NCBI GenBank assembly: GCA_003056145.1
Contig: LSNL01000002.1
Location: 36,369-100,368, forward strand
Direction of reading: 5' to 3'
Length of the DNA: 64,000 bases
DNA from: Parcubacteria group bacterium M10-OD1-1
GTDB taxonomy: Bacteria; Patescibacteriota; Minisyncoccia; Moranbacterales; UBA2206
Part shown: positions 508 to 53,610 of the stretch, piece after piece
Layout of the letters: each line of letters opens with the position of its first letter
Numbering within the stretch: the stretch's first letter is position 1
Translations under genes and position numbers: made by a program
Notes under the pieces: model-generated
Seen by the model: the letters and a program-made list of their open reading frames with translations, nothing else
Told to the model about the DNA's origin: nothing
The model's database searches: none

Positions 508-508
508 T

Positions 509-2065: not shown

Positions 2066-2093
2066 GATATTAATAAGGTAACAATTTTATATT

Positions 2094-3640: not shown

Positions 3641-3649
3641 AATTAACAT

Positions 3650-3949: not shown

Positions 3950-3973
3950 TTCTTATTCAAAATTTAAAATCCT

Positions 3974-4006
3974 CATCTACAGAGTTAACTCTGTAGATGG
4001 TTTTTT
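3974..4006 (+). terminator. Rho-independent terminator
   Basis: Perfect 11-bp stem CATCTACAGAG/CTCTGTAGATG with TTAA loop, followed by TTTTTT. Confidence 0.55.
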
Positions 4007-4531: not shown

Positions 4532-5038
4532 TTGCTAGAAAAAAATAATGTGAATAAAATAGCAAAGAAAAATATATATTTTGTATTAATATTTATTGCG
4601 ACAGTTTTTTTATTTTCAGGTTGTGATAGTGATATAGGAAATGTTCAGCCAGCAACAAATATTCAAAAAACAACTCAAGTTCAGGGGGTAGCGACAGAAA
4701 ATAAAAAAGATATTCAACCAGTTGCAAATATTAATGAAAAAAATCAAGTACAACAAGAAAAGATAGTAAATAATAATGACAATGTTAAGTTAGAAAAACA
4801 AAAGAGTCTAAAATTAAAAGAGAAGAAAACCTATAAGACAAAAGAAAGAGCAGTTTCAGCTGTTAAACCAAAAACTTGTGGAGATGATTATTATGTGAAT
4901 GTTAGTGGCAATTGTGTTCATCGTCCAAGTAGTAATCCTTCAGGAGCTTCAGCTAAATGTAGAGATGGATCGTATAGTTATAGTCAACATAGAAGAGGAA
5001 CTTGTTCCGGTCATGGAGGTGTAGCTCAATGGCTTTAA
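4532..5038 (+). CDS. Predicted lipoprotein with Cys/Gly-rich C-terminal domain (DUF3761-like)
   Basis: Signal peptide ending in the lipobox LFSGC. C-terminus is CGDDYYVNVSGNCVHRP...CRDGSYSYSQHRRGTCSGHGGVAQWL. The start codon is uncertain: TTG at 4532, or GTG at 4550. Confidence 0.45.
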   Translation: MLEKNNVNKIAKKNIYFVLIFIATVFLFSGCDSDIGNVQPATNIQKTTQVQGVATENKKDIQPVANINEKNQVQQEKIVNNNDNVKLEKQKSLKLKEKKTYKTKERAVSAVKPKTCGDDYYVNVSGNCVHRPSSNPSGASAKCRDGSYSYSQHRRGTCSGHGGVAQWL

Positions 5039-5414
5039 GCTATTATCTACAGAATTTCCTCCCAAGGCGGATAAAAACTCTGGTGGACTTGTCTGCGAGG
5101 TGGTCAACATATGTTGTAATAGACAGACTATTGACATAATAACCTAGCATAAATTAGGGTATTATAATCCTTTAAATCACATAGAATTTGAAGAATAGCT
5201 TAGCTGATAATTAAAAAAGTAATAAAATGTTGATAAAAAGAACAATACAGGATTATGTCGAGGATTATGATGGGGGACTGCACACCTATGAAATTAAGTG
5301 GAATAGTAAGAAAAAAGTAGTTACACCAAAAAAATGGAAAGATAATTATCCAATCGGATGATTTGAGACTGGGCTTGTTAAAAATGATTATGATATGCTA
5401 GACTTTAAATAGGT

Positions 5415-6233
5415 ATGAATATTGAATATAGTAAAATTTATAACATTCTGCAAATAAAAGACAACATTTTGGTATTTGATTTTCAAAATGTTGGTTTTTT
5501 GAATACTTTTGAAATCGTTGAATTGTTTTCTCTGGCGGTTTCCAGTTTATTTAGTGGAGATAAATACAAGATAATCAATGAAACTAAAGCAAGCAGTCAT
5601 TTAAAAAGAATTAATTTTTTTCCTGTTTTTGAAAAAATGAGAAATATTCCAGCATATGAAGAGGCTAGTTTCTCAACTGGTAACAGTAATAGACTTATAG
5701 AATTGCATAATTATGAACATAAAGAACAATTTTATGGTGATTATGATAAAATTTTTATAATGCTTAAAAATATTGGATTAACAGATGAAACTACTTCTTT
5801 AGTTGCTTCTTCACTGGGTGAAGTAGTGGATAATGCTTTTTTGCATAATCTTGGAATGTGGCCATTGAATATAAGTGGTAGATCAATATTGTTGGCACAG
5901 AATTTTCCACAGAAAAAAGAGTTGTGTTTTTCTTATTGTGATTTCGGTGTTGGCTTTCGAGCTACATTGCTAGAAAATTATCCTGAATTAAAAAATAATT
6001 TTGAAGCTATAAAATTGGCTATGGAAGAAAATGTAACATCACGATTTCCACGAAGAGGCGGAAACGGCTTGAATTATTTACAAAAAAATATTTTCAACGG
6101 ATTTAAAGGTGAATTATTGGTGCGTTCAGGCGAAGCATTGGTTAATGTGCGTAGTCAAGGAGATGTTGAATTAGTTGATAACAATGTGCAAGTTGGTTTT
6201 GGTTCAAACATATTTTTCTCATTAAAATATTAA
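5415..6233 (+). CDS. GHKL-superfamily ATPase-like protein (HATPase_c-like; SpoIIAB/anti-sigma-kinase-like core) with unknown N-terminal region
   Basis: N-box-like EVVDNAFLHN, G1-like DFGVGF and G2-like GGNGL motifs in the C-terminal 150 aa. Confidence 0.45.
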   Translation: MNIEYSKIYNILQIKDNILVFDFQNVGFLNTFEIVELFSLAVSSLFSGDKYKIINETKASSHLKRINFFPVFEKMRNIPAYEEASFSTGNSNRLIELHNYEHKEQFYGDYDKIFIMLKNIGLTDETTSLVASSLGEVVDNAFLHNLGMWPLNISGRSILLAQNFPQKKELCFSYCDFGVGFRATLLENYPELKNNFEAIKLAMEENVTSRFPRRGGNGLNYLQKNIFNGFKGELLVRSGEALVNVRSQGDVELVDNNVQVGFGSNIFFSLKY

Positions 6234-9865: not shown

Positions 9866-10468
9866 ATGAAATTATTTACTAAAGAAAAAATTCCTGCCAA
9901 GCATCTTCTTAAACATGAAACTAAAAAACAAGCTTTATTAAAGTTTTCTTTATTGTTGCTAGTTTTTTTAGCGTATGGAGGATTTATATCTTGGAAATAT
10001 GGGATGGCGCAAGGATTTTGGGTTTCTATTTTAACTTGGTCTTTTTTTGTTTTGAGTACTCCAGTCGCTGATGCTGGTTTTTTAATCAGTTTTCCAGTAC
10101 GACTTATTATTCAAATGAGAATGTTGGTATCTCAGATTATCGTTTGGTTTGTAGCGGTTTTTTTAAATATTTATACTTTCTTTTTGGTTCCAGACATTTA
10201 TAATAAAACTGATTTACTAAAACTTTTTTATCATATTATTGCTAAACCGATTCCTTTTTGGTTAATCTTTCTAATTTCAGCGATTGGGACGATTGTCTCT
10301 ATTCAATTTGGAGATGAGTTAATGGACACTGAGTTTCATAAAGACCGGGTTTTTTATCAGAAGCATAGAAAAAAGAATAAGTTTTTAATTATGATTTTTT
10401 TATTTATAATTGCTTTTATCTTATATAATTTCTTACTTAAACAATTAGGAATTCATATTTTAAGCTAA
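9866..10468 (+). CDS. Integral membrane protein, unknown function
   Basis: 200 aa with 5-6 predicted transmembrane helices. Confidence 0.4.
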   Translation: MKLFTKEKIPAKHLLKHETKKQALLKFSLLLLVFLAYGGFISWKYGMAQGFWVSILTWSFFVLSTPVADAGFLISFPVRLIIQMRMLVSQIIVWFVAVFLNIYTFFLVPDIYNKTDLLKLFYHIIAKPIPFWLIFLISAIGTIVSIQFGDELMDTEFHKDRVFYQKHRKKNKFLIMIFLFIIAFILYNFLLKQLGIHILS

Positions 10469-10576
10469 AATTTTAGTTGAATTTTTTTTTCTTTTAAGGT
10501 ATTCTTTAATAAAGCAGGCTTATCTTGTACTTGGTATAAGTTTGCTGTTAATATAAATTTTAGAAAGTTAAATAAT

Positions 10577-11557
10577 ATGCGAAAAATACTTATAGTTGGT
10601 GCTAAGGGAATGCTCGGACAGGAGCTAGTAAAAGCCTTTAAAAAGGATAAAGAAAATAAAGTTATTGCTTGGGACAAAGAAGATTTGAATATCTCTAGCG
10701 AAAAAGAGGTTAGTAAAAAAATAGGGTTTACAAAACCTAATATTATTATCAACGCTACCGCTTATAACGCTGTTGATAAGTGTGAGGAGGATAAAAAGGA
10801 GTATGCTATTGCTAGGAAAATCAATGGCTTGGCTCCTGGCTATTTAGCTAGAGCTGCCAAAAAAGCTAAGGCGATTTTAGTACATTATTCCACAGACTAT
10901 GTTTTTAATGGCGAACCAGAAATTCCAGAGCCAGAAGGCTGTTCTCAATCGTGTTCTTCTTGTTCACTTCATGCCGATTTTCAACCGGAAATTGGTTTTG
11001 ATGAAAAAGCTAAACCAAAGCCAATTTCTCAATACGGAAAAACTAAATTGCTTGGAGAAAAAGAAGTTGAGAAGAATATAAAAAAATTCTATTTAATAAG
11101 AACTTCTAGATTATTTGGTCAACCAAATTTGGCTCAAGAAGGCACAAAAAGTTTTTTTGAAATAATGATAGAGTTAGGTAAAAGAAAAAAGAAAATTGAA
11201 GTTGTTGATGAGGAAGCTAGCTGTTTTACTTATGTACCAGATTTAGTGAAAAAAACTAAAGAAATTGTTGATTCCCAAAAACCATTTGGTATCTATCACA
11301 TTGTTAATCGCTTTCCTTGTACTTGGTATGAAGCAGTTGTCTTTTTATATGAAAAAGCCAAAATAAAAGCTGAAGTTATTCCAGTTTCTTCCGAAGAATT
11401 TCCGCGTCCAGCTAAAAGACCGTATTATTCGGTCCTCGTTAATACTAAACTTAATCCATTGCGAGATTGGCGCGAAACTTTGGATGAGTACTTAAAAATT
11501 ATAGTACCAGTTAAGAAAAAAGTTTTAGCGAAAAAGAAAACATCAGCGAAAAAATAA
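10577..11557 (+). CDS. rfbD: dTDP-4-dehydrorhamnose reductase (RmlD) with internal Cys-rich insertion and Lys-rich tail
   Basis: N-terminal Rossmann ILIVGAKGMLG. HYSTDYVF...YGKTKLLGEK matches the RmlD catalytic Y-x3-K region. A ~25-aa insert (PEGCSQSCSSCSLHADFQPEIGFDE) is absent from canonical RmlD. Confidence 0.7.
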   Translation: MRKILIVGAKGMLGQELVKAFKKDKENKVIAWDKEDLNISSEKEVSKKIGFTKPNIIINATAYNAVDKCEEDKKEYAIARKINGLAPGYLARAAKKAKAILVHYSTDYVFNGEPEIPEPEGCSQSCSSCSLHADFQPEIGFDEKAKPKPISQYGKTKLLGEKEVEKNIKKFYLIRTSRLFGQPNLAQEGTKSFFEIMIELGKRKKKIEVVDEEASCFTYVPDLVKKTKEIVDSQKPFGIYHIVNRFPCTWYEAVVFLYEKAKIKAEVIPVSSEEFPRPAKRPYYSVLVNTKLNPLRDWRETLDEYLKIIVPVKKKVLAKKKTSAKK

Positions 11558-11583
11558 ATTTGTAAAAATTAAATTTAGGATAT

Positions 11584-12819
11584 ATGAAGAATCTAAAAAA
11601 ACAAGATAGAGAAGTGTATAAGTCAATTATGGGCGAGCTTAAGCGTCAGCAAGAAGGTATGGAGTTGATTGCTAGTGAAAACTATGTTTCGGAAGCTGTT
11701 TTGGAAGCCCTAGGTTCTGTTTTTACTAATAAATATAGTGAAGGGTATCCTGGGAAAAGATATTATGGAGGACAGGAATACACAGATGTGGTCGAGAATT
11801 TGGCGATTAAAAGAGCGAAAAAACTTTTTCAAGCTGAACATGTTAATGTGCAACCCCTTTCTGGCGCACCAGCTAATATGATTGCTTATATGGCGCTTTT
11901 ACAACCAGGTGATACCATTTTAGGAATGGATTTATCGCATGGAGGACATCTAACTCATGGTCATCCAGTAACTTTAAGTGCGCAAATTTATAATTTTGTT
12001 AGATATAAAACTAAAAAAAATGGCTTAATAGACTACAAGGAGTTGGAAGCAATGGCCATAAAACATAAGCCAAAATTAATTTTAGCTGGATTTTCGGCTT
12101 ATACAAGACAACTTAATTATGCTAAATTTCGTTCTATTGCTAAAAAAGTAGGAGCAATAACTATGATGGATATGGCACATATTGCTGGTTTGGTAGCTGG
12201 AAAAGTGATTACTAATCCAGTCCCTTATTTTGATGTAGTAACAACTACAACTCACAAAACCTTAAGAGGTCCACGAGGAGGAATGATTTTGTGTAAGGAA
12301 AAATATGCTCAAGCTATTGATAAAGCTCTTTTCCCTGGCTTTCAAGGTGGGCCACATGAAAATAATATTGCTGGCAAAGCAGTCGCCTTTGGAGAAGCTT
12401 TGAAGCCATCTTTCAAAAGATATGCTCAACAAATTCTCAAAAACGCTAAAACTTTGGAGAAAGAATTGAAAAAATATGGGTTCAAATTGATGTTTGGTGG
12501 AACGGATAATCATATGGTTTTAGTTGATGTTTTTGGCTCTAAAGGAATAAGTGGTAAAGAAGCGGAAGTTGCTTTAGATAAAGTAGGCATAACTTTAAAT
12601 AAAAATATGATTCCTGATGATCCGAGAAAACCTCTTGATCCTAGCGGAGTAAGAATTGGCGTTCCAGCTATTACAACTAGAGGAATGAAAGAAAAAGAAA
12701 TTAAAAAAATTGCTAATTGGATTAATGATGCTTTAGAAAATCATCAAGATACTAAAAAATTAAAACTAATTCATAAAGAAGTCATTAGCCTTTGTAAAAA
12801 GTTTCCTCTTTATAAATAA
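11584..12819 (+). CDS. glyA: Serine hydroxymethyltransferase
   Basis: [36 protein letters not shown], with the PLP-lysine region [14 protein letters not shown]. Confidence 0.95.
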
Positions 12820-12855
12820 ATCAATCAATTAAAAATAATTTTTTAAGTTAATTAA

Positions 12856-13653
12856 ATGAAAGGAATAATATTATCAGGAGGTACAGCCACTAGGCTTTTT
12901 CCTTTAACTGCTACTACTTCCAAACAACTCTTGCCAGTTTATAATCGGCAGATGATTTTTTATTCTCTAAATGTTTTAATTAAAGCAGGCATTAAAGATA
13001 TTCTTATTATCGTGGCTCCTGAACATTCAGGACAATATTTGAATTTATTAGGATCAATCTTTAAGGATTATGGCATTCATTTATATTTTGAAGTGCAAAA
13101 AGTTCCTCGAGGATTAGCTGATGCTTTTATTATCGGAGAGAAATTTATTGATAATGATTCGGTGGCGATGATTTTAGGAGATAATATTTTTGAAAAAGAT
13201 TTCTCAAAAGAAGTTAAAAATTTTCAATCTGGTGGATTGATTTTTGCTAAAAAAGTAAAAGATCCAGAGCGTTTTGGAGTAGTGAAATTTAATCAAGAAA
13301 AGAAAGCGATTAGAATTGTAGAAAAACCTCAACAATGGATTAGTGATTATATTATTCCTGGTTTTTATATTTATGATAATCGAGTATCTAAAGTAGCTAA
13401 AAAAATTAAACCTTCCAAAAGAGGGGAAATAGAAATTACTCAAGTACATAACTATTACCTTAAACAAGGTGAATTAAAAGTTAGTACTTTTCAAGGCGAG
13501 TGGTTAGATGCAGGAACTTTTGATACTCTATTAGAAGCTGGTCAAGTAGTAAAAGAAAAAAAAATCTACAAAAACTTTGATCCTTTAATTGAGAAAGCAA
13601 TAGCTAATTTCAATAAAGAACTGAAAGCCTTAGCTAAGAAAAAATTATTATAA
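12856..13653 (+). CDS. rmlA: Glucose-1-phosphate thymidylyltransferase (RmlA-like, short form)
   Basis: MKGIILSGGTATRLFPLT...SKQLLPVYNRQMIFYSL closely matches the RmlA N-terminus. Confidence 0.75.
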   Translation: MKGIILSGGTATRLFPLTATTSKQLLPVYNRQMIFYSLNVLIKAGIKDILIIVAPEHSGQYLNLLGSIFKDYGIHLYFEVQKVPRGLADAFIIGEKFIDNDSVAMILGDNIFEKDFSKEVKNFQSGGLIFAKKVKDPERFGVVKFNQEKKAIRIVEKPQQWISDYIIPGFYIYDNRVSKVAKKIKPSKRGEIEITQVHNYYLKQGELKVSTFQGEWLDAGTFDTLLEAGQVVKEKKIYKNFDPLIEKAIANFNKELKALAKKKLL

Positions 13654-41933: not shown

Positions 41934-43337
41934 ATGAAACTAGATTTAACAAAAATAAAAAAAGTTTATGTAATCGGGATTAAAGGTTCAGGAATTATTG
42001 CGATTGTGCAAATGCTACATTCTCAAGGAATAGAAATTTTAGGATCAGATACGACCGAAAAATTTTTTACTGATGCAATTTTACAAAAGATGAAAATAAA
42101 ATATTTTGAGGGGTTTAATCCTGAAAATATTCCTTTAGATGTTGATTTAGTAATTTATTCTACTTCTTATAATGAAAATAATAATGCAGAATTGGTAGAA
42201 GCTAAAAAAAGAAATTTAAAAATTATCAGTTATCCAGAAATTCTAGCTTCTTTCTTTAACCAAAAATTCGGTATTGCTGTTGCAGGAACTCATGGAAAAA
42301 CTACTACCTCCGCTATGTTAGCGCAGGTGATGTTAGAGGCTGGTGCCGATCCAAGCGCCGTTGTGGGTAGTCAAATTAAAAGTTGGGAAGGCAATGCTTT
42401 AGTTGGTCGGGGAGAATATTTTATTGCAGAAGCAGATGAATTTCAAAATAAACTTCAATTCTATTTTCCTAAAATGGTAATTTTAACCAGTGTAGATTGG
42501 GATCATCCAGATTTTTTTGAAAAATTTTCTGATTATAAAAAAGTTTTCCAAGACTTCGTTAAAAAAATTCCACGAACAGGATTATTAGTAGTTTGGGGAG
42601 AAAGTGTAGATACCTTGGAAGTAGCTAAGGAAGCTACTTGTCAAATAATTAGATATGGTTTTGCAGAAGATAATGAGGTGAGAATTATCAACTATCAATT
42701 ACAAATTCCTGAACAATCTTCAATTTCTAATTGGCAAGAATTTGAAATTTCAATCAAGGGAAAGTCTTTAGGTAAATTTAAAACTCGGCTAGTTGGTCAA
42801 CATAATGTTTTGAATGTAGCTAGTGTAATTGTTATTTGCTATAAGTTAAATTTAAATATGGAAAAAGTCAAAAAAGCTCTTTGGGATTTTCAAGGAACAG
42901 CTAGAAGATTTGAATATATTGGAACCAGAAATGGAGCTATTTTAATTGATGATTACGGGCATCATCCAGAGGAAATAAAAGCTACTCTAAAAAGTGCTAG
43001 GGAAATTTATCCTCAAAAAAATATTTTGGCAATTTTTCAGCCACATACTTTCACTAGAACAAAAATGTTTCTTGACGAATTTGCTCAAAGTTTTAGTGCA
43101 GTTGATAAAGTGATTGTTTTGGATATTTATGGCAGTGCTAGAGAAAATCAAGGAGGAGTTAGCTCTCAGGATTTAGTAACTTTAATTAATAAATTTGATT
43201 ATCAAAAAGCTCAAAACATTGCAACGGCAGAAAAAGCAGTGGAATATTTAAAAGATAAGCTAGATCAGAATGATGTAGTTATTACTATTGGCGCTGGTAA
43301 TGGTTGGAAAATTGTAGAACAATTAAAAAAAGATTAG
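41934..43337 (+). CDS. murC: UDP-N-acetylmuramate--L-alanine ligase
   Basis: VYVIGIKGSGIIAIVQMLHSQGIEILGSD, and GIAVAGTHGKTTTSAML P-loop. Confidence 0.9.
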   Translation: MKLDLTKIKKVYVIGIKGSGIIAIVQMLHSQGIEILGSDTTEKFFTDAILQKMKIKYFEGFNPENIPLDVDLVIYSTSYNENNNAELVEAKKRNLKIISYPEILASFFNQKFGIAVAGTHGKTTTSAMLAQVMLEAGADPSAVVGSQIKSWEGNALVGRGEYFIAEADEFQNKLQFYFPKMVILTSVDWDHPDFFEKFSDYKKVFQDFVKKIPRTGLLVVWGESVDTLEVAKEATCQIIRYGFAEDNEVRIINYQLQIPEQSSISNWQEFEISIKGKSLGKFKTRLVGQHNVLNVASVIVICYKLNLNMEKVKKALWDFQGTARRFEYIGTRNGAILIDDYGHHPEEIKATLKSAREIYPQKNILAIFQPHTFTRTKMFLDEFAQSFSAVDKVIVLDIYGSARENQGGVSSQDLVTLINKFDYQKAQNIATAEKAVEYLKDKLDQNDVVITIGAGNGWKIVEQLKKD

Positions 43338-43381: not shown

Positions 43382-46300
43382 ATGGATAAACAAAAAAACA
43401 AATTACAAAATTTTACTAATCTCTATGAGCTATCAAAAACTTTGAGGTTTGAGTTGAAACCGGTTGGGGAAACACTTGCAAAAATAAAAGAACACTTTCA
43501 GTATGATAAAGATTTGCAAACTTTTTTGAAGGATCAAAAGATTGAAGATGCTTATCAATTATTAAAACCAAAAATAGATACCATTCATGAATTTTTTATT
43601 GATACTAGTTTAGAGTCGGCAAAAGCAAAGCAAATAGATTTTAGTGAATATCTTGAAAAATATAAAAAGAAAGATGCTTTACTAGACACAGAAAAGAAGT
43701 TAAGAAATGCTATTGGAAAAACTTATCTTGAAGGAGGGAAAAAACTAAAATATGAATATCTAGATTTAAAATGGAAAAAAGGAAGTAGTGAAACAAGGGG
43801 AGTGAATATGCTTTTTTCTATTGATATTTTAGAAGCAGTAAGACAAGATTTTTCTGATGATGAAGATGTAGAAAATGCTTTGGAGGAATTTAAAAGTTTT
43901 TTCACTTATCTTTCCGGTTTTAATCAAAACAGAGCTAATTATTATACAACAGATGGAAAAGTTACTGCAATAGCAACTCGTATTGTTGATGAAAATTTAC
44001 CAAAATTTTGTGCCAATACTTTGCAGTTTAACGGATACACGAAAAAAAATAAAAAAGGAAAAGAGATAAAATTTGATAGAAAAAATGAATATCTTGAAAT
44101 ATACACATATCTCAAAGCTCAAAACAAAACAACTCAAATCAAAGATGCTGATACAGACACAATGATAGAGGCAACTCCTATTACTGAAGAAATATTTCAG
44201 ATAGCTTATTTTGTAAATTGTTTTTCACAAAAAGAGATTGAAGAATATAATAAAAAAATAGGACATTGCAATCAACTTATCAATCTTTATAATCAAGCGA
44301 AAAACAAAGAAGAAAATTTCAAAAAACTTCCGTTGTTTAATACACTTTACAAGCAAATTGGATGCGGTAAAAGAGAGCCATTATTTTTTAGCATTACTCA
44401 TGACACAAAAAAGCAATCTAAAGAAAACAAAGAAAAATTCTCAAAACCATATTCGGTAGAAGAAATTTTGGAAGATGCCAAAGATGGTGGAGAAAAGTTT
44501 TTTAAAGAACCAAGTAATAACGAGGATATGACAGTTTATACTTTGACTAAATGGCTTAGAAACAATAAAGATTGGGAAGGTGTATATTGGTCAAAACCTG
44601 CTATAAATACAATTTCTAACAAATATTTTGCTAATTGGCATGAAATAAAAGATAAATTAAAAAAAGATAAAACCGTTGCTAGTTTTAACAAAAAAAGAGA
44701 GGAACAAATAAAGATTAATGATGCTGTTGAATTAGCGGGACTTTTTGAAGTGTTGGATGATTTTGGAGATGAAGGAATGCAACCAGGGCGGAGTGAGAAG
44801 TTTTTTAAACCATCAATTATTCAAGATAGAAAAGATGAAATAGATGAATCTAAAACGCTAAGCCAAAATCTTCTCAGTATGCTTTGTAATGATATAGAAA
44901 ATAATGCAAAAGATTTTACAGATACAGAAAAACAAGCAAAAATCTTTTCAATCTCAGATTACAAAGAAGATAAAAATAAAAAATTTATCAAAGAATGGAT
45001 GGATGGTGCTTTGGCTGTAAACAAAATGATAAAGTATTTTAGAGTAAAGGCAAACAAGATAAAAGGATCAGAAATAAACACAGAACTTAACAATATTTTA
45101 GATATTCTTTTGGATAAAGAAAAAGCAGATTGGTTTAAGTGTTATGATTCTTTGAGAAACTATCTTACAAAAAAACCGCAAGATGATGTAAAAGAAAATA
45201 AATTGAAGTTGAATTTTGAAAAAGGAAATTTGTTAAATGGTTTTGTTGATTCGCATTCTGCATCTGATAATGCTACGCAATACGGAGGGTATTTATTTAG
45301 AAAATATATTGGAAATGATGAGTTAGAATATAAAAAATATTATTATTATTTAGGAATTAGTAAAGATCCAAAATTATTTCGTTGTCATTTGCAGAATGAA
45401 ATCCGAGAAAATGATAAGAATGAATTGCAAAGATTGGAATATTATCAACCTAAATCTACTACTTTTTTTAGTGATAAGTATTCAGAAAATAAGAAAAAAA
45501 TTGTAGAGTATCTTTCTGCAGAATTAAATGTGCAAATTGAAAAAGAAAAGGAGCTTTTAGATATAGAAAATGATAATAAAAAAATAGGTGAGCTAGATAG
45601 ACTAAAAACGAAATTATTAAAAGGAGATACTCCTACAAAATTATTTGATAATATACAAAAAAATAAAAAGTATATATATATTTTAGAAGATAAAAAACTA
45701 AATGAACTAGTTGATGAAACTATTAAAGAGATGAAAATTTTTATTAAAAATTATGAAGAAAGAACCTCAAAATTAAAAGAGATTCAAGAAAGAAAATATA
45801 TTGGCTGGAAAGATTTAAAGTGTATAATTGATGATTTACAAGAAATAGCTAAAAAACAAAAAGTATATAATTTTTTTGCTATTAGTAATTCTGAATTTCA
45901 GGAAGTAAAAAATAGAAAAGACAAGCCATTGTTTTTATTTCAAATAGTAAATAAAGATTTACAAAGGCCATTAATACTAAAAGACAAAAAAACAGGAAGG
46001 TCTGTTATAAACAATCTTCACACCATCTATTTTGAGACACTACTTTCTGGAAATCAAGACGCTATTGACATAGGAGCTGGAGCTATTTTTTACAGGCAAT
46101 ATGCTATTGATAAAAAGGTGTTAAAAGATGGATATGAAAAAAAGCCATGGATTATAAAAAATAAAAGATTTACAAAAAATGAATCATTGACTGAAGATAA
46201 AAAAATGTTATCACAAGATGGAAAATCTTTTTTTCTACATTTATCAATCAGTTTAAATTTTTCATCAGATCCTAGTACTATAAGGGGTAAAAGAAATAAA

Positions 46301-47710
46301 AAAGTAGTTGCAACTCTTAACACACTTACTCAAACGGAATTTATCAAGCAAGAAAATATTTACTTCCTTGGTCTTGATCGAGGAGAAAAACACCTTGTAT
46401 ATTATTGTTTAATTGACCAAAAAGGAAAAATTATAAAACAAGGAGATTTAGACATGCCATTTCTAGATGCAAATAAAAATCCTAGAAGTGTTTTGAGGAA
46501 AAAATATTTTTATGATAAAAAGACAAAAGAATGGGAGGAGAAGGAAGTAGATTGTTGGAATTATAATGATTTACTGGATGCTGTTTCCTCAAATCGTGAT
46601 ATGGCTCGTAAAAATTGGCAAACTATTGGGAATATAAAGAATCTCAAAGCGGGATATATTTCACAAATTGTTTATGAGATTGTAAAAGAAGTAACGAATA
46701 AACCAACTTATATCGTTTTGGAAGATTTAAATACGGGATTCAAAAGAGGAAGACAAAAAATAGAAAAACAAATTTATCAAAAATTTGAAGTGGCACTTGC
46801 TAAAAAACTTAACTTCATTGTAGATAAAACAGCTCAAGATGGAGAGCTTGCATCGGTTACAAAAGCATTGCAACTTACTCCACCTGTAGAAAATTATCAA
46901 GATATTGAGAAGAAAAAACAAGTGGGAGTTATGCTTTATACAAGAGCTAATTATACTTCTGTTACTGATCCAAAAACGGGATGGAGAAAAACAGTTTACT
47001 TGAAAAAAGGATCGGAAGAATCAATTAAAGAACAAATTTTAGAAAAATTTACTGATATTGGATTTGATGGAAAAGATTATTTTTTTGAGTATGAAGATGA
47101 TTTCACAGGAAAAAAATGGAGGATTTGGTCAGGAAAAGATGGGAAAGCACTGTTGCGCTATAGAGGAAAGAGAGGAAAAGATAAATATGAATGGATTATT
47201 GAAGAGCAAGATATTGTTGAAATTTTAGATGGTGTATTTCAGAAATTTGATAAAAATCGCTCGTTATATGGTCAAATTAAAGAAGGTATAAAGCTTATAA
47301 AATATAATGAACATACCGCTTGGGAATCTTTGCGTTTTGCTATTGATCTTATCCAACAAATTAGAAACTCAGGAGATGTTGAAAAAAAAGAAGATGACAA
47401 TTTCTTGCTTTCGCCGGTAAAAGATGAAAATGGAAAGCATTTTGATTCTCGTGAATATGAAAACCAAGAAAATGCTGATATGCCAAGAGATGCTGATGCA
47501 AATGGGGCATTCAATATCGCTAGAAAAGGTTTGATAATGCATGAGCATATTAAGCAATGGAAAAAAGATGGCGCAAGAAATAAAGACTTAAATTTATTTA
47601 TTTCAGATAGAGAGTGGGATTTGTGGCTATTAAATAGAGAAGAATGGAGAAATAAGTTATCAACTTTTGCATCACAGAAGTTATGGGATGATTTTGCAAC
47701 TAAAAAATAA
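43382..47710 (+). CDS. cas12a: Cas12a (Cpf1) type V-A CRISPR effector nuclease
   Basis: N-terminus FTNLYELSKTLRFELKPVGETL is the Cas12a WED signature. RuvC-I is LGLDRGEKHLVYY (D around aa 999). RuvC-II is YIVLEDLNTGFKRGRQKIEKQIYQKFE. RuvC-III is DADANGAFNIARKGL. A Nuc-like segment lies between RuvC-II and RuvC-III. Adjacent to a CRISPR array with Cas12a-type repeats. Confidence 0.92.
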   Translation: MDKQKNKLQNFTNLYELSKTLRFELKPVGETLAKIKEHFQYDKDLQTFLKDQKIEDAYQLLKPKIDTIHEFFIDTSLESAKAKQIDFSEYLEKYKKKDALLDTEKKLRNAIGKTYLEGGKKLKYEYLDLKWKKGSSETRGVNMLFSIDILEAVRQDFSDDEDVENALEEFKSFFTYLSGFNQNRANYYTTDGKVTAIATRIVDENLPKFCANTLQFNGYTKKNKKGKEIKFDRKNEYLEIYTYLKAQNKTTQIKDADTDTMIEATPITEEIFQIAYFVNCFSQKEIEEYNKKIGHCNQLINLYNQAKNKEENFKKLPLFNTLYKQIGCGKREPLFFSITHDTKKQSKENKEKFSKPYSVEEILEDAKDGGEKFFKEPSNNEDMTVYTLTKWLRNNKDWEGVYWSKPAINTISNKYFANWHEIKDKLKKDKTVASFNKKREEQIKINDAVELAGLFEVLDDFGDEGMQPGRSEKFFKPSIIQDRKDEIDESKTLSQNLLSMLCNDIENNAKDFTDTEKQAKIFSISDYKEDKNKKFIKEWMDGALAVNKMIKYFRVKANKIKGSEINTELNNILDILLDKEKADWFKCYDSLRNYLTKKPQDDVKENKLKLNFEKGNLLNGFVDSHSASDNATQYGGYLFRKYIGNDELEYKKYYYYLGISKDPKLFRCHLQNEIRENDKNELQRLEYYQPKSTTFFSDKYSENKKKIVEYLSAELNVQIEKEKELLDIENDNKKIGELDRLKTKLLKGDTPTKLFDNIQKNKKYIYILEDKKLNELVDETIKEMKIFIKNYEERTSKLKEIQERKYIGWKDLKCIIDDLQEIAKKQKVYNFFAISNSEFQEVKNRKDKPLFLFQIVNKDLQRPLILKDKKTGRSVINNLHTIYFETLLSGNQDAIDIGAGAIFYRQYAIDKKVLKDGYEKKPWIIKNKRFTKNESLTEDKKMLSQDGKSFFLHLSISLNFSSDPSTIRGKRNKKVVATLNTLTQTEFIKQENIYFLGLDRGEKHLVYYCLIDQKGKIIKQGDLDMPFLDANKNPRSVLRKKYFYDKKTKEWEEKEVDCWNYNDLLDAVSSNRDMARKNWQTIGNIKNLKAGYISQIVYEIVKEVTNKPTYIVLEDLNTGFKRGRQKIEKQIYQKFEVALAKKLNFIVDKTAQDGELASVTKALQLTPPVENYQDIEKKKQVGVMLYTRANYTSVTDPKTGWRKTVYLKKGSEESIKEQILEKFTDIGFDGKDYFFEYEDDFTGKKWRIWSGKDGKALLRYRGKRGKDKYEWIIEEQDIVEILDGVFQKFDKNRSLYGQIKEGIKLIKYNEHTAWESLRFAIDLIQQIRNSGDVEKKEDDNFLLSPVKDENGKHFDSREYENQENADMPRDADANGAFNIARKGLIMHEHIKQWKKDGARNKDLNLFISDREWDLWLLNREEWRNKLSTFASQKLWDDFATKK

Positions 47711-47740
47711 ATTAAAAAGTTATGTCTAAAAATAAAAAAT

Positions 47741-50700
47741 ATGAATAATTTCAAAAATTTGTATGAAATAACGAAGACGGTGCGGTTTCAAGCGATTCCT
47801 CAAAATGATAATGCAAAAAATAAAGAATTTATTGATAAAACAAAGCCAGATATTTTTAAATTTACAAAACAATGTCAAAAAATTCAGGAAAATTTTTTAG
47901 ATATTTTTTGTTATAAAGACGCTTTTGAAGAAGAGAATAAAATAGAATTTAAGAAAAAGCGAAAAATAAGGTATGGTTGGTTAAGAAATTACATAAAAAT
48001 TGATTTTTATGATTGGAAAAAAGAAAATAATCGAAATGATAAAGAATATTTTTTAACAGAAGTTGACTATTTACCGAAAGAATTTTTAAGGTGGATAAAT
48101 GAGTGGCAAGAACTTACAAATAAGTTAGATGAGTTTGTTGATAAAAATGAAGAGGAACAGGAACGAAAAAGTGAGATTGCTTTTGTCTTGCGTGGGTTTT
48201 TAAAACGGCAAAATTTTGAATTTATTCAAGAATTTGTAAAAGCGGTAATGGATTTGCAAAATGAAAGTGGAATAGAGTTAGATAAAAAAATAAAAGAGTT
48301 AAGAGAATTAATTTCAGAAACTTATAGAAATTTAAAAGCCTGTGAAAGAAAGTATTTACCCGCTCAAAGCACCGGAGTCTGTTTATATAAAGCAAGTTTG
48401 AATTACTATACAATAAACAAGACACCAAAATATTACACAAAAGAAAAAGAAAAAAAAGAAAAAGAGTTAGAAATGGAAATTATTGATTGTAAAGATAAAT
48501 TTGGAAAACCAGAGTTTTGGTTTGATAAAAAGTTTAATTTTAGAGAAAATCCACTTTATTGGACTCTTGAAGATGCCTATCAAAAAATGAAAATTTGGAA
48601 AGCAGATCAAAAATCAAAATTTAATGAAAAAATTGGGAATTTTATTTCCGATTATTTAAAAAAAGAATTTAAGGAGGATGAAATAAATCAATCACGGTTA
48701 GAAATTGCAAAAAATATTTTAAAAAAATATCCGTTATTTTCACCTATCAAAGAAGACTTTTTTATATCTTTTTTAGAACAGACAAAGGAAATAAAAATAA
48801 AATCTAAACAAAAAAATGATATTCTGCAAAAAAATGGAGATATAAAATCAAAAGAATTTGAAAAAATAATTTCTCAAAAATTACAAAATAGAAAGGTTCT
48901 CACAGAAGATGAGAACAATTTTGAGCAACTTTCAAAAGAAATAGCTAATATTGCCAAAGAGAGAGGAAAATTTTTTAATGCTCCAAATCAAACTATTCAA
49001 ACAAAAAATTATTATGAATTGTGTGAATTGTACAAACAAATTGCGATGAAGCGTGGGAAGATTATCGCAGAAATAAAAGGGTTGGAAAATGAAGAAGTGC
49101 AATCCCAAATGCTTTCTCATTGGGCCTTGGTGGTGCAAAAAAGGGAAAAAAGGTATGTTGTTTTTATTTCTCGTGGAGAAAATGAAAATCATAAGAAGGC
49201 TCATGATTGGCTAGAAAGAAACAAAGAGAATTTACAAAAAAAATCAGATGATTCTGTTATTTTGTATCATTTTAAATCTCTCACTTTACGAGCATTAGAG
49301 AAACTTTGTTTTAAAGAAGTTGAAAATACTTTTGCTCCAAAATTGAAACAAGGGGGAGTTAAGGTTAATTTTACGAGAATTAAAAAAGAATCCGGAAAAG
49401 AAAAAATAATTGATGTTTATGAGTTTCCAAGGTGTAAGCAAGAATTAAAAACAGATAACGAAAAAATAAATTTTTATTTAGAAGTTTTAAGATTTGAAGC
49501 AAGTAGACAAGATTATGAACTTAAACAATTAGATTTAGTTGATTTCGGAGGTTTGAAAGAATTTTTAGAAAAATCATCTGGTGATTTTGATAATCTGCAA
49601 GAATTTGAATCAGAGCTTGAAAAGGTGTGTTATGTTAAAGTACTTCTTTATTTTTTGGAAGATCAGTATGATAAATTTTTAGACATACTAAATGCAAAAG
49701 AGTTTGAAATAACAACTCGAAGTATCTCAAAAGAGAGTAAGAGAAAAGAAAATGCACATGCAGAAATTTGGAAAAATTTTTGGAATGATGAAAATGAAAA
49801 AAGTAATTATATTACCCGATTAAATCCAGAGATGAGTGTTTTTTATAGAGACACTCTTGATACACATGAAGGGAACAGAAACAGGTTTTCAGAACCTCGT
49901 TTTACACTTGCAACAACTATTACACTCAACGCAACGGCTAAAAAATCAAATTTATCATTTAAGACAATAGATGATATTAAAAAGAGTATTGATAAATTTA
50001 ATAAAGGGTTCAATAAGAATTTTAGAGGAGAATGGAGTTTTGGAATTGATAGAGGATTAAAAGAATTAGCGACTTTAAATATTGTAAAATTTGCAAAAGA
50101 TAAAAATGAATTTGGTGTTTCAAAACCAGAAAATTTTGCAGAGATAACAGTTTATAAATTAAAAGATGGGGATACATTTTTGACCGATAGTAGTGGTAAT
50201 GATTTGATAAATGCAAAAGGAGAAAAAAGAAAAATTATTGATAATATTTCGGAGGTTTTGCAAGAAAATGTGGAACCTGACTCAGAACTATTTGAGAAAC
50301 AAATTATTTCCAGTATTGATTTAACTCAAGCAAAACTTATCAAAGGGCATATTATTCTGAATGGAGATCAAAAAACTTATTTAAAACTTAAAGAATTATC
50401 AGCAAAAAGAAGAATTTTTGAGCTTTTTTCTACAAGAAAAATTGATAAGAGTTCAGAGATTACAGGAAAAAATAATTTTATAATTGGTGGTGAGAAAATC
50501 TATTTTGCAACAGAATGGCAAAAAGAAAATAAACATTGGAGAACAAATAGAGAAATAATAAAAGCTGATTTAAAAGATTATTTATTGAAATTAGATAAAA
50601 AAAATAAATTTGAAGATATTGAGCAAATAGAAAAAATAAATCATTTACGAGATGCAATAACGGCAAATATGGTTGGAATTATTTTTCACCTGCAAAATGT

Positions 50701-51226
50701 ACTAGGGATGAATGGTTTTATTGGATTGGAAAATCTTGATGTAATACGAAAAGAACTTTTAGAAAATGAAAAACAAGAAGACAAAAAAATGATTGAAGAG
50801 CATTTTGATCAGAGTAATGAAGATATTTCTCGTCGTTTGGAGTGGGCATTGTATAGAAAATTTGCAAATGTTGGGGATGTTCCACCACAAATAAAAGAAT
50901 CAATATTACTGAGAGATGATTTTTTGACCTATCAAATTGGAATTTTGAAATTTGTAAAAGTTGGCGGAACAAGTCGAGGTTGTCCAAACTGTAAAATATT
51001 TTGGGACAATGGGTGTGGTAGTAAATGTAATCCAAAGTGTAGTAGGTGTTTGGAAAATGAAGAATATAAGAAAAGTAAGAATAAAAATATTTATATTTGC
51101 AAAGACGTAAAAAAATGTAAATTTTCAACAGAAGAAAATCGAAATTTATTAGAAGAAAATCTTAATAATTCAGATGAGGTTGCAGCATATAATGTAGCAA
51201 AAAATGCTTTTGAGGAAACATATTAA
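47741..51226 (+). CDS. cas12a2: Second, divergent Cas12a-like effector with zinc-ribbon in place of Nuc domain (Cas12a2-like)
   Basis: N-terminus MNNFKNLYEITKTVRFQAIPQNDNA is Cas12a-WED-like. RuvC-I is WSFGIDRGLKELATL (around aa 770). RuvC-II is NGFIGLENLDV (around aa 997). RuvC-III is NSDEVAAYNVAKNAF (around aa 1145). Between RuvC-II and RuvC-III lies a Cys-rich segment: GCPNCKIFWDNGCGSKCNPKCSRCL...ICKDVKKCKF. The protein is 1161 aa, against 1442 aa for the adjacent Cas12a. It starts 31 nt after the cas12a stop and shares the downstream array. Confidence 0.65.
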   Translation: MNNFKNLYEITKTVRFQAIPQNDNAKNKEFIDKTKPDIFKFTKQCQKIQENFLDIFCYKDAFEEENKIEFKKKRKIRYGWLRNYIKIDFYDWKKENNRNDKEYFLTEVDYLPKEFLRWINEWQELTNKLDEFVDKNEEEQERKSEIAFVLRGFLKRQNFEFIQEFVKAVMDLQNESGIELDKKIKELRELISETYRNLKACERKYLPAQSTGVCLYKASLNYYTINKTPKYYTKEKEKKEKELEMEIIDCKDKFGKPEFWFDKKFNFRENPLYWTLEDAYQKMKIWKADQKSKFNEKIGNFISDYLKKEFKEDEINQSRLEIAKNILKKYPLFSPIKEDFFISFLEQTKEIKIKSKQKNDILQKNGDIKSKEFEKIISQKLQNRKVLTEDENNFEQLSKEIANIAKERGKFFNAPNQTIQTKNYYELCELYKQIAMKRGKIIAEIKGLENEEVQSQMLSHWALVVQKREKRYVVFISRGENENHKKAHDWLERNKENLQKKSDDSVILYHFKSLTLRALEKLCFKEVENTFAPKLKQGGVKVNFTRIKKESGKEKIIDVYEFPRCKQELKTDNEKINFYLEVLRFEASRQDYELKQLDLVDFGGLKEFLEKSSGDFDNLQEFESELEKVCYVKVLLYFLEDQYDKFLDILNAKEFEITTRSISKESKRKENAHAEIWKNFWNDENEKSNYITRLNPEMSVFYRDTLDTHEGNRNRFSEPRFTLATTITLNATAKKSNLSFKTIDDIKKSIDKFNKGFNKNFRGEWSFGIDRGLKELATLNIVKFAKDKNEFGVSKPENFAEITVYKLKDGDTFLTDSSGNDLINAKGEKRKIIDNISEVLQENVEPDSELFEKQIISSIDLTQAKLIKGHIILNGDQKTYLKLKELSAKRRIFELFSTRKIDKSSEITGKNNFIIGGEKIYFATEWQKENKHWRTNREIIKADLKDYLLKLDKKNKFEDIEQIEKINHLRDAITANMVGIIFHLQNVLGMNGFIGLENLDVIRKELLENEKQEDKKMIEEHFDQSNEDISRRLEWALYRKFANVGDVPPQIKESILLRDDFLTYQIGILKFVKVGGTSRGCPNCKIFWDNGCGSKCNPKCSRCLENEEYKKSKNKNIYICKDVKKCKFSTEENRNLLEENLNNSDEVAAYNVAKNAFEETY

Positions 51227-51240
51227 ATAATTTCTTAGAA

Positions 51241-51309
51241 ATTAAAAATGGCGATGATTTAGCTTCTTATAACATCGCAAAGCGAGGATTAAAAATTTGC
51301 AAAATATTA
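51241..51309 (+). pseudogene. Orphan fragment encoding a Cas12 RuvC-III/C-terminal-like peptide (IKNGDDLASYNIAKRGLKICKIL)
   Basis: Translation of 51241-51309 gives NGDDLASYNIAKRGL, matching the Cas12a DADANGAYNIARKGL motif. No start codon. Lies 15 nt after the stop of the second effector. Confidence 0.35.
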
Positions 51310-51618
51310 TAACAAGAGTAGAATTAGAGTATAAAAAGGATTTTACTGGAGGAGATAGTATTTATATATTTCAAGTATGCGAAGGATGTAAAAAAAAGAT
51401 TAAACGATATGGTTATGCTAAACATGAAGAATCAGATTTTATTTGCGTTTCATAAGGCTCTTTTACAATTAGCTAAAAGTATAAATTTCAGTCAGCCTAT
51501 TTCAAAAAATACAAAACCTCAGTTTCAATATCGTGGTTTTGCTTTATTTAAGTCAAAAAGTCGTTTTAACCTTAGTTTAAAATTTGCATCTTTTTGGCTT
51601 AAATATGCTATTTCTGGG

Positions 51619-53366
51619 CTCAAATAGACTTATCAAATTTCTACTTTTGTAGATTACATCTCCTATTACAATTATATCGTTCTCAAATAGACTTATCAAA
51701 TTTCTACTTTTGTAGATATGCGTTTTTTAAGATTTTTAATAATTGCTCAAATAGACTTATCAAATTTCTACTTTTGTAGATATTTTTGCTCCTCTACCAT
51801 TTTTCCTCTCAAATAGACTTATCAAATTTCTACTTTTGTAGATCTAATTTACCACCTTGTTGGGTTTCAACTCAAATAGACTTATCAAATTTCTACTTTT
51901 GTAGATTCTTTATCGCCAATTCTATGCGGCTTCTCAAATAGACTTATCAAATTTCTACTTTTGTAGATCAATAACTAAATAAAAGTTTTTGGGTGAACTC
52001 AAATAGACTTATCAAATTTCTACTTTTGTAGATTTCTAACATAAAATATGACTGTAAATCTCTCAAATAGACTTATCAAATTTCTACTTTTGTAGATTGA
52101 AGACTTGGAGTAAATCTAAAATAGACTCAAATAGACTTATCAAATTTCTACTTTTGTAGATCTAGATACTTGTTTGGCTAATGTAGCTCCTACACTCAAA
52201 TAGACTTATCAAATTTCTACTTTTGTAGATGAGTTGCTCAAAAGTATATTTTAGAGATAGATCTCAAATAGACTTATCAAATTTCTACTTTTGTAGATGT
52301 TATAGCGTTCATTTTACCAGCAAAGCTCAAATAGACTTATCAAATTTCTACTTTTGTAGATTTTGCTTAATCCCAACCCAGATGCCCCTCAAATAGACTT
52401 ATCAAATTTCTACTTTTGTAGATAGGGGTGTAGGCTTTCCTCCTGGCTTGGACCTCAAATAGACTTATCAAATTTCTACTTTTGTAGATCCTCGTGCACA
52501 TCTTTGCGTACTACTACCTCAAATAGACTTATCAAATTTCTACTTTTGTAGATTTCTATCGTGCAGGAGTTAAAAGTATTGCTCAAATAGACTTATCAAA
52601 TTTCTACTTTTGTAGATGATGATTTAAGAAATAATAATAAATACTCAAATAGACTTATCAAATTTCTACTTTTGTAGATATTGTTCCCGTGATTACATCC
52701 ACTGATGGCTCAAATAGACTTATCAAATTTCTACTTTTGTAGATTCTACCCTTGGCTATATCAACCATTCTCAAATAGACTTATCAAATTTCTACTTTTG
52801 TAGATCTCGCCTAGCCAGCGAATAGCTAATACTCAAATAGACTTATCAAATTTCTACTTTTGTAGATGTAGTGAAGAAAATAACTTAATTTTAGACTCAA
52901 ATAGACTTATCAAATTTCTACTTTTGTAGATAAGGACCCATTAGGCAAACGGTAAGCGTCCTCAAATAGACTTATCAAATTTCTACTTTTGTAGATGGCG
53001 TGACAGACAATGCAACATCCATACTCAAATAGACTTATCAAATTTCTACTTTTGTAGATGTAGAATTGTCTGTATTAAATAACCTAGAACTCAAATAGAC
53101 TTATCAAATTTCTACTTTTGTAGATAGTCCAGAGGTCTTCAGTGTCTACATACTCAAATAGACTTATCAAATTTCTACTTTTGTAGATTCATTGCCACTC
53201 TTATCCGGTGATCACTCAAATAGACTTATCAAATTTCTACTTTTGTAGATACCGCCTATCAGCGATATTACTCTCCTCAAATAGACTTATCAAATTTCTA
53301 CTTTTGTAGATAAGTGGAAATTAAAAACCCAATTAAAGCTCAAATAGACTTATCAAATTTCTACTT
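51619..53366 (+). CRISPR. CRISPR array: 28 repeats (27 full plus 1 degenerate terminal) of 36 nt, CTCAAATAGACTTATCAAATTTCTACTTTTGTAGAT, and 27 spacers of 25-33 nt
   Basis: Repeats start at 51619, 51682, 51746, 51808, 51871 and so on, through 53276. The last repeat (53339-53366) diverges after CTACTT. The repeat 3' half AATTTCTACTTTTGTAGAT is the Cas12a crRNA 5'-handle, with stem TCTAC/GTAGA and loop TTTT. The array is oriented on the + strand: leader on the cas-proximal side, degenerate repeat distal. Confidence 0.97.
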
Positions 53367-53610
53367 GGGAGCATTTTTTTCATTTGCGTTGTTCTTCTGC
53401 AGCTGAACCATCAATGCGAGAAGTAACAATTCCCCTTAGTGAGGAATTTTGTAAAAAATTTCCTCAACATTCATTTAATAGGCGGATGCCAGAGGGTTGG
53501 ATTTTAGAAAAATAGAAAAAATTTAGATTTGAGAATAGTAATAAAGCTATTGTTTGTAACCAAACAATAGCTTTTAAAATTGGTATAAGTGTGATAAAAT
53601 TTAATTAGTA

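Follow-up and report, generated by a model that had tools for sequence, protein, structure and literature searches.

Tandem Cas12a and Cas12a3 genes upstream of one CRISPR array in a Moranbacteria-like bacterium: a probable two-effector type V locus

The closest described relatives of the system considered here are the Cas12a3 nucleases of type V CRISPR (short palindromic repeats that are clustered and regularly interspaced) loci. RNA-triggered cleavage of the tRNA 3' CCA tail was reported for this family by Dmytrenko et al. (2026, Nature; PMC12851939), with the tRNA-loading domain (tRLD) corresponding to residues 855-960 of Ba1Cas12a3, and Li et al. (2026, NAR; PMC13594972) found the tRLD, which marks the tRNA-specific subgroup, in only ~35% of the Cas12a3 clade. 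The characterised Cas12a3 enzymes act on RNA only (tRNA tails or collateral RNA) and leave DNA undamaged (PMC12851939, PMC13594972), and Ba1Cas12a3 and BaCas12a3 lose most or all of their cleavage activity when the tRLD is deleted (PMC12851939, PMC13594972). Among the tRLD-less orthologs, RoiCas12a3 from Roizmanbacteria cuts target single-stranded RNA (ssRNA) and shows high collateral RNA cleavage (PMC13594972), and ca23Cas12a3 produces a tRNA 3' cleavage pattern in vitro like that of Ba1Cas12a3, with 226-fold lower activity. The association of Cas12a3 with Cas12a has been noted previously, and the repeats processed by Cas12a, Cas12a2 and Cas12a3 are the same, with a common array being possible (PMC13594972). 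Cas12a2 (SuCas12a2, MpCas12a2) is also similar in its RNA-triggered abortive infection, zinc ribbon in place of the Nuc domain, use of Cas12a CRISPR RNAs (crRNAs) and frequent location beside Cas12a, but it shreds double-stranded DNA (dsDNA) via aromatic clamps and triggers the SOS response, whereas Cas12a3 enzymes are RNA-only. Here we describe a locus that encodes Cas12a and a tRLD-less Cas12a3 in a window of 64,000 nucleotides (64 kb) from Parcubacteria group bacterium M10-OD1-1 (contig LSNL01000002.1); all coordinates below refer to this window unless another contig is named.

On the plus strand of the window, two intact effector genes, separated by 30 bp, are arranged in tandem and followed by a 28-repeat array:

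43382..47710, plus strand: cas12a (open reading frame 1, ORF1), 1442 amino acids, predicted DNA-targeting type V-A effector
47741..51226, plus strand: cas12a3 (ORF2), 1161 amino acids, RuvC and zinc-ribbon effector, predicted to be RNA-triggered, from the subclade without the tRLD
51456..51618, plus strand: CRISPR leader
51619..53374, plus strand: CRISPR array in which 28 repeats (36 nt each) alternate with 27 spacers (25-33 nt)

Both gene boundaries are exactly those given in a first-pass annotation of this DNA, in which ORF1 was taken for a Cas12a and ORF2 for a Cas12a2. We propose with good confidence a different reading, namely that this is a type V locus in which Cas12a and a tRLD-less Cas12a3 depend on one array, that Cas12a3 is responsible for RNA-triggered, RNA-only cleavage, and that the adaptation genes were lost recently.

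The family of ORF2 was examined using labelled reference proteins from the supplementary FASTA file of Dmytrenko et al. (PMC12851939), the lengths of which agree with the table in that paper; the blastp comparison covered Cas12a3 references other than Sm3Cas12a3 and four Cas12a2 references other than SuCas12a2. The Cas12a3 references matched ORF2 with E values from 0 to 1e-35 (ca1Cas12a3, E=0 with 55% identity along the entire protein; ca20Cas12a3, 38% identity; ca23Cas12a3, E=1e-96; Ba1Cas12a3, E=3e-61), compared with 2.5e-9 for the best of the four Cas12a2 references (21% identity in a partial alignment), 7e-5 for the best Cas12a4 (ca40Cas12a4) and 2e-4 or worse for the Cas12a references. 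A phmmer search of the PDB initiated with ORF2 retrieved Cas12a3 chains only (Ba1Cas12a3, 9hlx, 3e-61; BaCas12a3, 21we, 1e-58), and Cas12a2 chains were absent from the matches even at E<=10. In a neighbor-joining (NJ) tree built with the labelled published references (979 trimmed columns, 100 bootstraps), the Cas12a3 clade that includes ORF2 received 100% bootstrap support, with all Cas12a2 and Cas12a4 references falling outside, and within this clade ORF2 forms a subclade with ca1Cas12a3, ca20Cas12a3 and Rb2Cas12a3 from Roizmanbacteria (P0007, PIZ64637.1) that is supported at 99%. An AlphaFold2 model of ORF2 was built on 47 homologs (predicted local distance difference test score, pLDDT, 82.7; predicted template modelling score 0.68), and a Foldseek search with this model identified the BaCas12a3 ternary complex as the best hit (template modelling score, TM, 0.71), followed by Cas12a2 (8d4a, TM 0.58), with Cas12a at ~0.3. 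No match to ORF2 was obtained in the Pfam and NCBIfam scans, which is uninformative with regard to novelty because neither library contains a Cas12a3 model; PADLOC (2023) labels the protein 'Cas12a' (PDLC01232, 2e-235). Given the concordance of the blastp, PDB phmmer, tree and fold results, ORF2 is therefore classified, by sequence and predicted structure, as a member of the Cas12a3 clade and not as a Cas12a2. The first-pass annotation was right in considering ORF2 a diverged relative of Cas12a but not in the choice of the family: the BLAST comparison with Cas12a, Cas12a2 and other Cas12 proteins and the phylogenetic placement that it proposed led to the Cas12a3 clade.

The N-terminus of ORF2 contains a WED-type motif (NLYEITKTVRFQAIP), and the protein encompasses the three RuvC motifs, GIDRGLK (D770), GLENLD (E997) and NSDEVAA (D1145), with a Cys-rich stretch located between the last two (CPNC at residues 1081-1084, CGSKCNPKCSRC at 1092-1103 and CKDVKKC at 1120-1126). 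The predicted functional elements are the following:

50048..50050, plus strand: catalytic Asp of RuvC-I, D770 (D712 in Ba1Cas12a3), conserved without exception in a 47-sequence alignment and Asp throughout a 152-sequence alignment
50408..50668, plus strand: insertion-domain segment R890-N976, 86 amino acids, tRLD absent
50729..50731, plus strand: catalytic Glu of RuvC-II, E997 (E1032 in Ba1Cas12a3), invariant in the 47-sequence alignment
50981..51118, plus strand: zinc ribbon with ligands C1081, C1084, C1120 and C1126 and a lineage-specific insert that adds C1092, C1096, C1100 and C1103
51173..51175, plus strand: catalytic Asp of RuvC-III, D1145 (D1137 in Ba1Cas12a3), at least 90% conserved

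Of the zinc ligands, C1081, C1084 and C1126 do not vary in the 47-sequence alignment, and the conservation of C1120 is at least 90%; in the larger set of 152 family members, both the D/E/D triad and the CCCC zinc pattern are near-universal. The distance from RuvC-II to RuvC-III is 148 amino acids in ORF2, as against 257 in ORF1, and therefore leaves no room for a Cas12a-type Nuc domain. Thus, the first-pass annotation holds in this part: the motifs that it quoted for ORF2 (the WED-type N-terminus, RuvC-I to RuvC-III and the Cys-rich segment) are all present, the RuvC catalytic residues are conserved on alignment, and a zinc ribbon replaces Nuc. Furthermore, Y218, S469, T471 and K477 of BaCas12a3, which interact with the protospacer flanking sequence (PFS) (PMC13594972), align with Y223, S513, T515 and K521 of ORF2 (phmmer alignment to 21we), and in the 47-sequence alignment S513 is invariant whereas T515 and K521 are at least 90% conserved. 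ORF2 also shares with the Ba1Cas12a3 and BaCas12a3 structures determined by cryo-electron microscopy (PDB 9HLX, 9HM4-6, 21WE, 21WJ) the order of domains, namely WED, REC, PI, RuvC, insertion domain and zinc ribbon, but it is only 27% identical to these type members and does not contain the ~80 amino acids of the tRLD that gate the active site.

The absence of the tRLD is apparent as follows. The segment equivalent to R890-N976 consists of 86 amino acids in ORF2, compared with 162-175 in about ten Ba1-like proteins among the 152 measured; the residues of Ba1Cas12a3 that contact the CCA tail (R902, Y922 and N924) have no counterpart in ORF2 in an alignment with Ba1 and ca26; and in the ORF2 model this segment is limited to a hairpin and helices. 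By these criteria, ORF2 is placed in the tRLD-less majority of the Cas12a3 clade; the missing domain is compatible with clade membership and argues against strict CCA-tail specificity.

The likely function of ORF2, by analogy with its characterised orthologs (PMC12851939, PMC13594972), is RNA-triggered, RNA-only collateral cleavage that leads to growth arrest, with crRNAs shared with Cas12a. Under this scenario, both Cas12a and Cas12a3 would process and load crRNAs from the single array. Cas12a would cut matching dsDNA beside a T-rich protospacer adjacent motif (PAM), and Cas12a3 would be switched on by base pairing between its crRNA and a complementary transcript that has a purine-rich PFS at its flank. 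As this PFS is complementary to the PAM, a spacer taken up next to a Cas12a PAM could provide an RNA target as well, provided that the target strand is transcribed. The RuvC domain of the activated Cas12a3 would then cleave RNA only, such that translation would stall and growth would be arrested with the DNA undamaged. The activity of ORF2 is expected to resemble that of RoiCas12a3, with cleavage of the target RNA and strong collateral RNA cleavage, tRNAs being among the substrates; strict CCA-tail trimming of the Ba1 type is not expected because the tRLD is missing. Nor is the indiscriminate degradation of ssRNA, single-stranded DNA (ssDNA) and dsDNA that was previously put forward for ORF2 expected from a member of a family whose characterised representatives are RNA-only (PMC12851939, PMC13594972).

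The upstream protein, ORF1, starts with the WED-type motif NLYELSKTLRFELKP and contains RuvC-I (GLDRGEK, residues 997-1003), RuvC-II (VLEDLN, 1112-1117) and RuvC-III (DADANGA, 1370-1376), with the RuvC residues D999, E1114 and D1372, as well as the FKRGRQKIEKQIYQKFE helix (residues 1120-1136), so that all the motifs originally quoted for it are present; the 257 amino acids between RuvC-II and RuvC-III contain Nuc. The TIGR04330 (cas_Cpf1) profile matches ORF1 over its full length with 491.6 bits (cutoff 300), the PADLOC Cas12a models match with E=0, and Pfam detects REC1 and RuvC_1, with the NUC and PI models below threshold (for NUC, no match at E<=0.1). All matches of ORF1 among PDB sequences are Cas12a proteins (E values down to 5e-90, alignments over residues 776-1420), and in the NJ tree ORF1 clusters with the Cas12a references. 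Judging from these profile and tree results, ORF1 is a Cas12a, as initially annotated. Like type V-A proteins, it has the RuvC motifs, a bridge-helix region and a segment with Nuc, but it is long (1442 amino acids) and divergent, its nearest relative among the loci fetched from species-representative genomes, in locus L023, being 44-52% identical.

Downstream of the effector genes, 27 of the 28 repeats of the array are identical (CTCAAATAGACTTATCAAATTTCTACTTTTGTAGAT), and the terminal repeat is degenerate, with 5 mismatches. The 3' end of the repeat is the Cas12a-type handle AAUUUCUACUUUUGUAGAU, which folds into a 5-bp UCUAC/GUAGA stem (predicted -4.8 kcal/mol). The first-pass annotation had correctly placed ORF2 in tandem with Cas12a on an array with a Cas12a handle and had counted the 28 repeats, but put the end of the array at 53366, whereas the true end is 8 nt further, at 53374. 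A search of the whole array against 50,697 phage records yielded two chance-level matches only (E=0.1 and 0.5), and for three GC-rich spacers no exact match was found in IMG/VR. Likewise, no self-target was found in the window and no meaningful spacer match in the fetched loci.

Intact copies of cas1, cas2 and cas4 are absent from the 64-kb window, in agreement with the initial observation that these genes are missing in cis. The origin of this arrangement becomes apparent from the comparison with a sister assembly (GCA_003056095.1, contig LSNQ01000003.1, hereinafter L001), which shares with the window the gene order trypsin/PDZ, PRA-PH, KH, trmD, ftsW, murG, murC, cas12a, cas12a3. The two sequences are 99.9% identical over L001 positions 1-6120 and 98.6% identical over positions 9935-13557 (blastn). 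In L001, cas12a3 is followed on its 3' side by cas4, cas1, cas2, the leader and the array; a stretch of 1811 bp (L001 13558-15368) that encompasses cas4, cas1 and cas2 up to codon 41 is missing from the window, with the deletion junction at window position 51297 (blastn break at L001 13557/15369). A tblastn search of the window with the sister Cas1 and Cas4 gave nothing at E<0.2. Two gene fragments adjoin the junction:

51226..51297, plus strand: non-coding relic, in a different frame from cas12a3, of the C-terminus of a Cas12a-family protein; NNFLEIKNGDDLASYNIAKRGLK, RuvC-III-like
51297..51455, plus strand: cas2 3' remnant, codons 42-93 and the stop codon, 100% identical to the sister Cas2 (tblastn E=8e-32)

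The cas2 remnant lies directly 5' of the intact leader, which differs by one base from the leader of the sister genome in an alignment. In light of this comparison, the lack of the cas4-cas1-cas2 module stems from a recent strain-level deletion rather than being a design feature of the system. The module being deleted, the acquisition of spacers from this locus would therefore no longer be possible in this strain. The sister array (L001 15687-16168) has the same repeats, one of them off by one base; none of its seven leader-proximal spacers is among the 27 spacers of the window.

Part of the relic (51244-51291) is weakly similar in tblastn to the RuvC-III region of Cas12a, and the relic resembles what would remain of an earlier 3' end after its displacement by recombination. 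The sister genome has a longer version of it, which ends in RGLEFIKSKSSEDDNEE followed by a stop codon. The presence of a RuvC-III-like piece after the stop codon of cas12a3 made us consider a frameshifted or truncated ORF2, which is rejected in view of the 'AAYNVAKNAF..' C-terminus common to many intact relatives and of the same relic located 3' of the intact sister gene. The cas12a3 gene itself is 99% identical to the sister copy, and none of the changes is disabling.

These observations have to be weighed against other interpretations of the locus. If ORF2 were a Cas12a2, it would respond to an RNA target by cutting ssRNA, ssDNA and dsDNA indiscriminately, and abortive infection would involve DNA damage. 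The overall build of the protein (WED N-terminus, RuvC, zinc ribbon replacing Nuc, tandem location with Cas12a) and the second-best fold match are what this interpretation would predict, but we find it barely credible because the similarity to Cas12a2 is marginal and confined to partial alignments (at best E=2.5e-9, against E=0 to 1e-60 for Cas12a3), the PDB matches at E<=10 include no Cas12a2 chain, and Cas12a2 forms a separate clade (E values of 1e-9 or worse) from which the tree splits ORF2 with 100% bootstrap support. Furthermore, the published Cas12a3 proteins are devoid of the aromatic-clamp regions for DNA shredding and elicit no SOS response (PMC12851939). Next to impossible, in our view, is that ORF2 is a Cas12a4-type enzyme or a plain DNA-targeting duplicate of Cas12a, as the PADLOC label and the Cas12a-like N-terminal motif might be taken to indicate: the E values are no better than 7e-5 for Cas12a4 and 2e-4 for Cas12a, the tree places ORF2 with Cas12a3, and the Cas12a models of Pfam and NCBIfam do not match the protein. 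A simple Cas12a duplication that retained Nuc, an alternative mentioned in the first-pass annotation, is at odds with the same Cas12a E values and with the short RuvC-II to RuvC-III distance of 148 amino acids, compared with 257 in ORF1.

With membership in the Cas12a3 clade thus preferred, ORF2 could still be a strict tRNA-tail nuclease like Ba1Cas12a3, which would spare the target RNA and trim only tRNA 3' CCA ends. We consider this unlikely, even though the two proteins belong to the same clade and ca23Cas12a3, which is likewise without the long insertion (~95 amino acids by eye in the respective segment), gives a tRNA 3' cleavage pattern resembling that of Ba1Cas12a3 in vitro: the CCA-stacking residues R902, Y922 and N924 belong to the very segment that is missing from ORF2, removal of the tRLD from Ba1Cas12a3 or BaCas12a3 severely impairs cleavage, the activity of ca23Cas12a3 is far below that of Ba1Cas12a3, and the tRLD-less Roizmanbacteria ortholog from the subclade of ORF2 cut target RNA, with high collateral cleavage and a different tRNA pattern. 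Decay of the locus, with cas12a3 and/or the array non-functional or kept for a non-immune role only, might be surmised from the 1811-bp deletion, the Cas12a-family relic and the lack of phage-record matches for the spacers; it is, however, very unlikely in view of the two intact effector genes with complete catalytic residues, the uniformity of 27 of the 28 repeats, the near-identity of cas12a3 to the sister copy and the recovery of the same contigs from two independent sequencing runs. Moreover, loci consisting of effectors and an array without adaptation genes are common, and Cas1-Cas2 can act in trans.

Several considerations temper the preferred reading, that of an RNA-only, tRLD-less Cas12a3 acting beside Cas12a. 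The ORF2 protein is known here from its sequence and a predicted model, and both genes and the array are known at the DNA level, with an uninformative promoter scan. The closest characterised relative, RoiCas12a3, is presumably ~52% identical. The tRLD-less orthologs differ from each other, ca23Cas12a3 trimming tRNA tails and RoiCas12a3 combining broad collateral with target cleavage, and the substrate preference therefore cannot be read from the sequence. Protospacers were not found in the searches described above. Finally, the four-cysteine insert in the zinc ribbon of ORF2 is modelled with low confidence (pLDDT <50 at residues 1091-1097).

This insert (window 51014-51049, ORF2 residues 1092-1103) follows the pattern C-x3-C-x3-C-x2-C. 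In a set of the 20 closest relatives, only Rb2Cas12a3 and P0008 carry these additional cysteines, and P0003, P0004 and ca1Cas12a3, which are nearer to ORF2 in the tree, do not have them; this distribution suggests mosaic evolution. The four residues C1092, C1096, C1100 and C1103 could make a second zinc site. In BaCas12a3, the RuvC groove is gated jointly by the zinc ribbon and the tRLD, and it might be speculated that the enlarged ribbon of ORF2 stands in for the missing tRLD as a substrate gate. If this is the case, the substrate preference of these enzymes from the candidate phyla radiation (CPR) would be unlike that of Ba1Cas12a3 (tRNA tails), Cas12a2 (everything) or Cas12a4.

The comparison with the sister genome also revealed that the body of cas12a has been swapped between the two near-identical strains (window 43476-47682 versus L001 6121-9934). 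There is no nucleotide similarity across the ~4 kb of the swapped region, and the flanks are 99.9% and 98.6% identical; the two Cas12a proteins share 29-33% identity and agree fully in residues 1-31. Of the ten amino acid differences between the two Cas12a3 copies, nine are located within residues 10-35, which puts the right recombination boundary inside the 5' end of cas12a3. Among the fetched species-representative loci, the Cas12a of the window is nearest to Gracilibacteria Cas12a (44-52%) and that of the sister genome to Roizmanbacteria Cas12a (56%). Such an allele swap, with the neighboring cas12a3 conserved, might be due to selection on the DNA-targeting partner only, exerted for instance by anti-CRISPRs. 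We rate this possibility and, separately, the substrate-gate role of the enlarged zinc ribbon jointly as doubtful. A further case of discordance is found in locus L051 (WGDO01000035.1, Patescibacteria), where Cas4, Cas1 and Cas2 are ~80% identical to those of the sister genome, whereas Cas12a is 48% identical to the sister Cas12a and Cas12a3 is 31% identical to ORF2; the adaptation and effector modules therefore have different histories.

The tRLD-less orthologs Rb2Cas12a3 and ca1Cas12a3 are 52-55% identical to ORF2 over the full length and, together with ca20Cas12a3, share with it the RuvC triad, the zinc ribbon, the short insertion and the Cas12a-type repeat, and Rb2Cas12a3 additionally has the 8-Cys variant of the zinc ribbon. 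The Roizmanbacteria loci L004 and L006 are organised similarly to the present one, with Cas12a encoded directly upstream; the difference is that those loci retain cas4-cas1-cas2, lost here, and that the host here is Moranbacteria-like. We surveyed the generality of this arrangement in 77 loci with a Cas12a3 relative from species-representative genomes. A strong Cas12a match adjoins cas12a3 in 38 of the 77, and in 32 it is located directly upstream on the same strand. When the count is restricted to loci whose upstream sequence extends over at least 4 kb, Cas12a is directly upstream in 26 of 53, so the tandem layout cannot be considered unusual, and the contig of Ba1Cas12a3 itself (L061) also has Cas12a directly upstream. 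The CPR origin had been regarded as unusual, but the published Cas12a3 set already includes members from Roizmanbacteria and Gracilibacteria (PMC12851939). Where the downstream sequence extends over at least 3 kb, cas1 is present in 40 of 56 loci, and the combination of Cas12a and Cas12a3 without a nearby cas1 is represented by one assessable locus only (L039). At least three Cas12a-type handles were detected in 51 of the 80 fetched loci, three of which are copies of this locus or its sister.

The CRISPR locus is embedded in a cell-wall gene cluster, which it interrupts (ftsW-murG-murC, CRISPR, murB):

41934..43337, plus strand: murC, upstream chromosomal flank; Pfam Mur_ligase domains recorded on the identical gene of L001 and L002
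53611..54591, plus strand: murB, downstream chromosomal flank; Pfam MurB_C (6e-32) and FAD_binding_4

On the 3' side of murB are the genes for a ribosome hibernation factor, a response regulator, recJ and an RNase H. The closest named relatives of MurC are Moranbacteria proteins with 60-66% identity, which identifies the host as a CPR bacterium that is Moranbacteria-like by this marker, in accord with the CPR lineage given in the first-pass annotation. Across the 64-kb window, no tRNA, tmRNA or Rfam family was detected at threshold (ARAGORN, Rfam), and in a promoter and terminator scan, which was uninformative, promoter-like sites were rarer than in shuffled sequence. A perfect 14-bp hairpin (AAAGCTATTGTTTG...CAAACAATAGCTTT, window 53543-53574), located after the array and before murB, could be a terminator.

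The family, its mechanism, the sharing of crRNAs with Cas12a and the frequent tandem placement were all published in 2026, and the locus does not represent a new class of systems. Rather, it is a well-assembled CPR (Moranbacteria-like) example of the two-effector arrangement of Cas12a and Cas12a3, which goes beyond the published picture only in the strain-level swap of the cas12a allele, the deletion of the adaptation genes and the 8-Cys zinc ribbon. The window and its sister form a natural before-and-after pair, in which the two Cas12a proteins are ~30% identical and cas12a3, the leader and the repeats are nearly unchanged; this pair of strains should be useful for the study of module exchange and loss in CRISPR loci, and the locus offers candidates for the study of tRLD-less Cas12a3 enzymes with an 8-Cys zinc ribbon.

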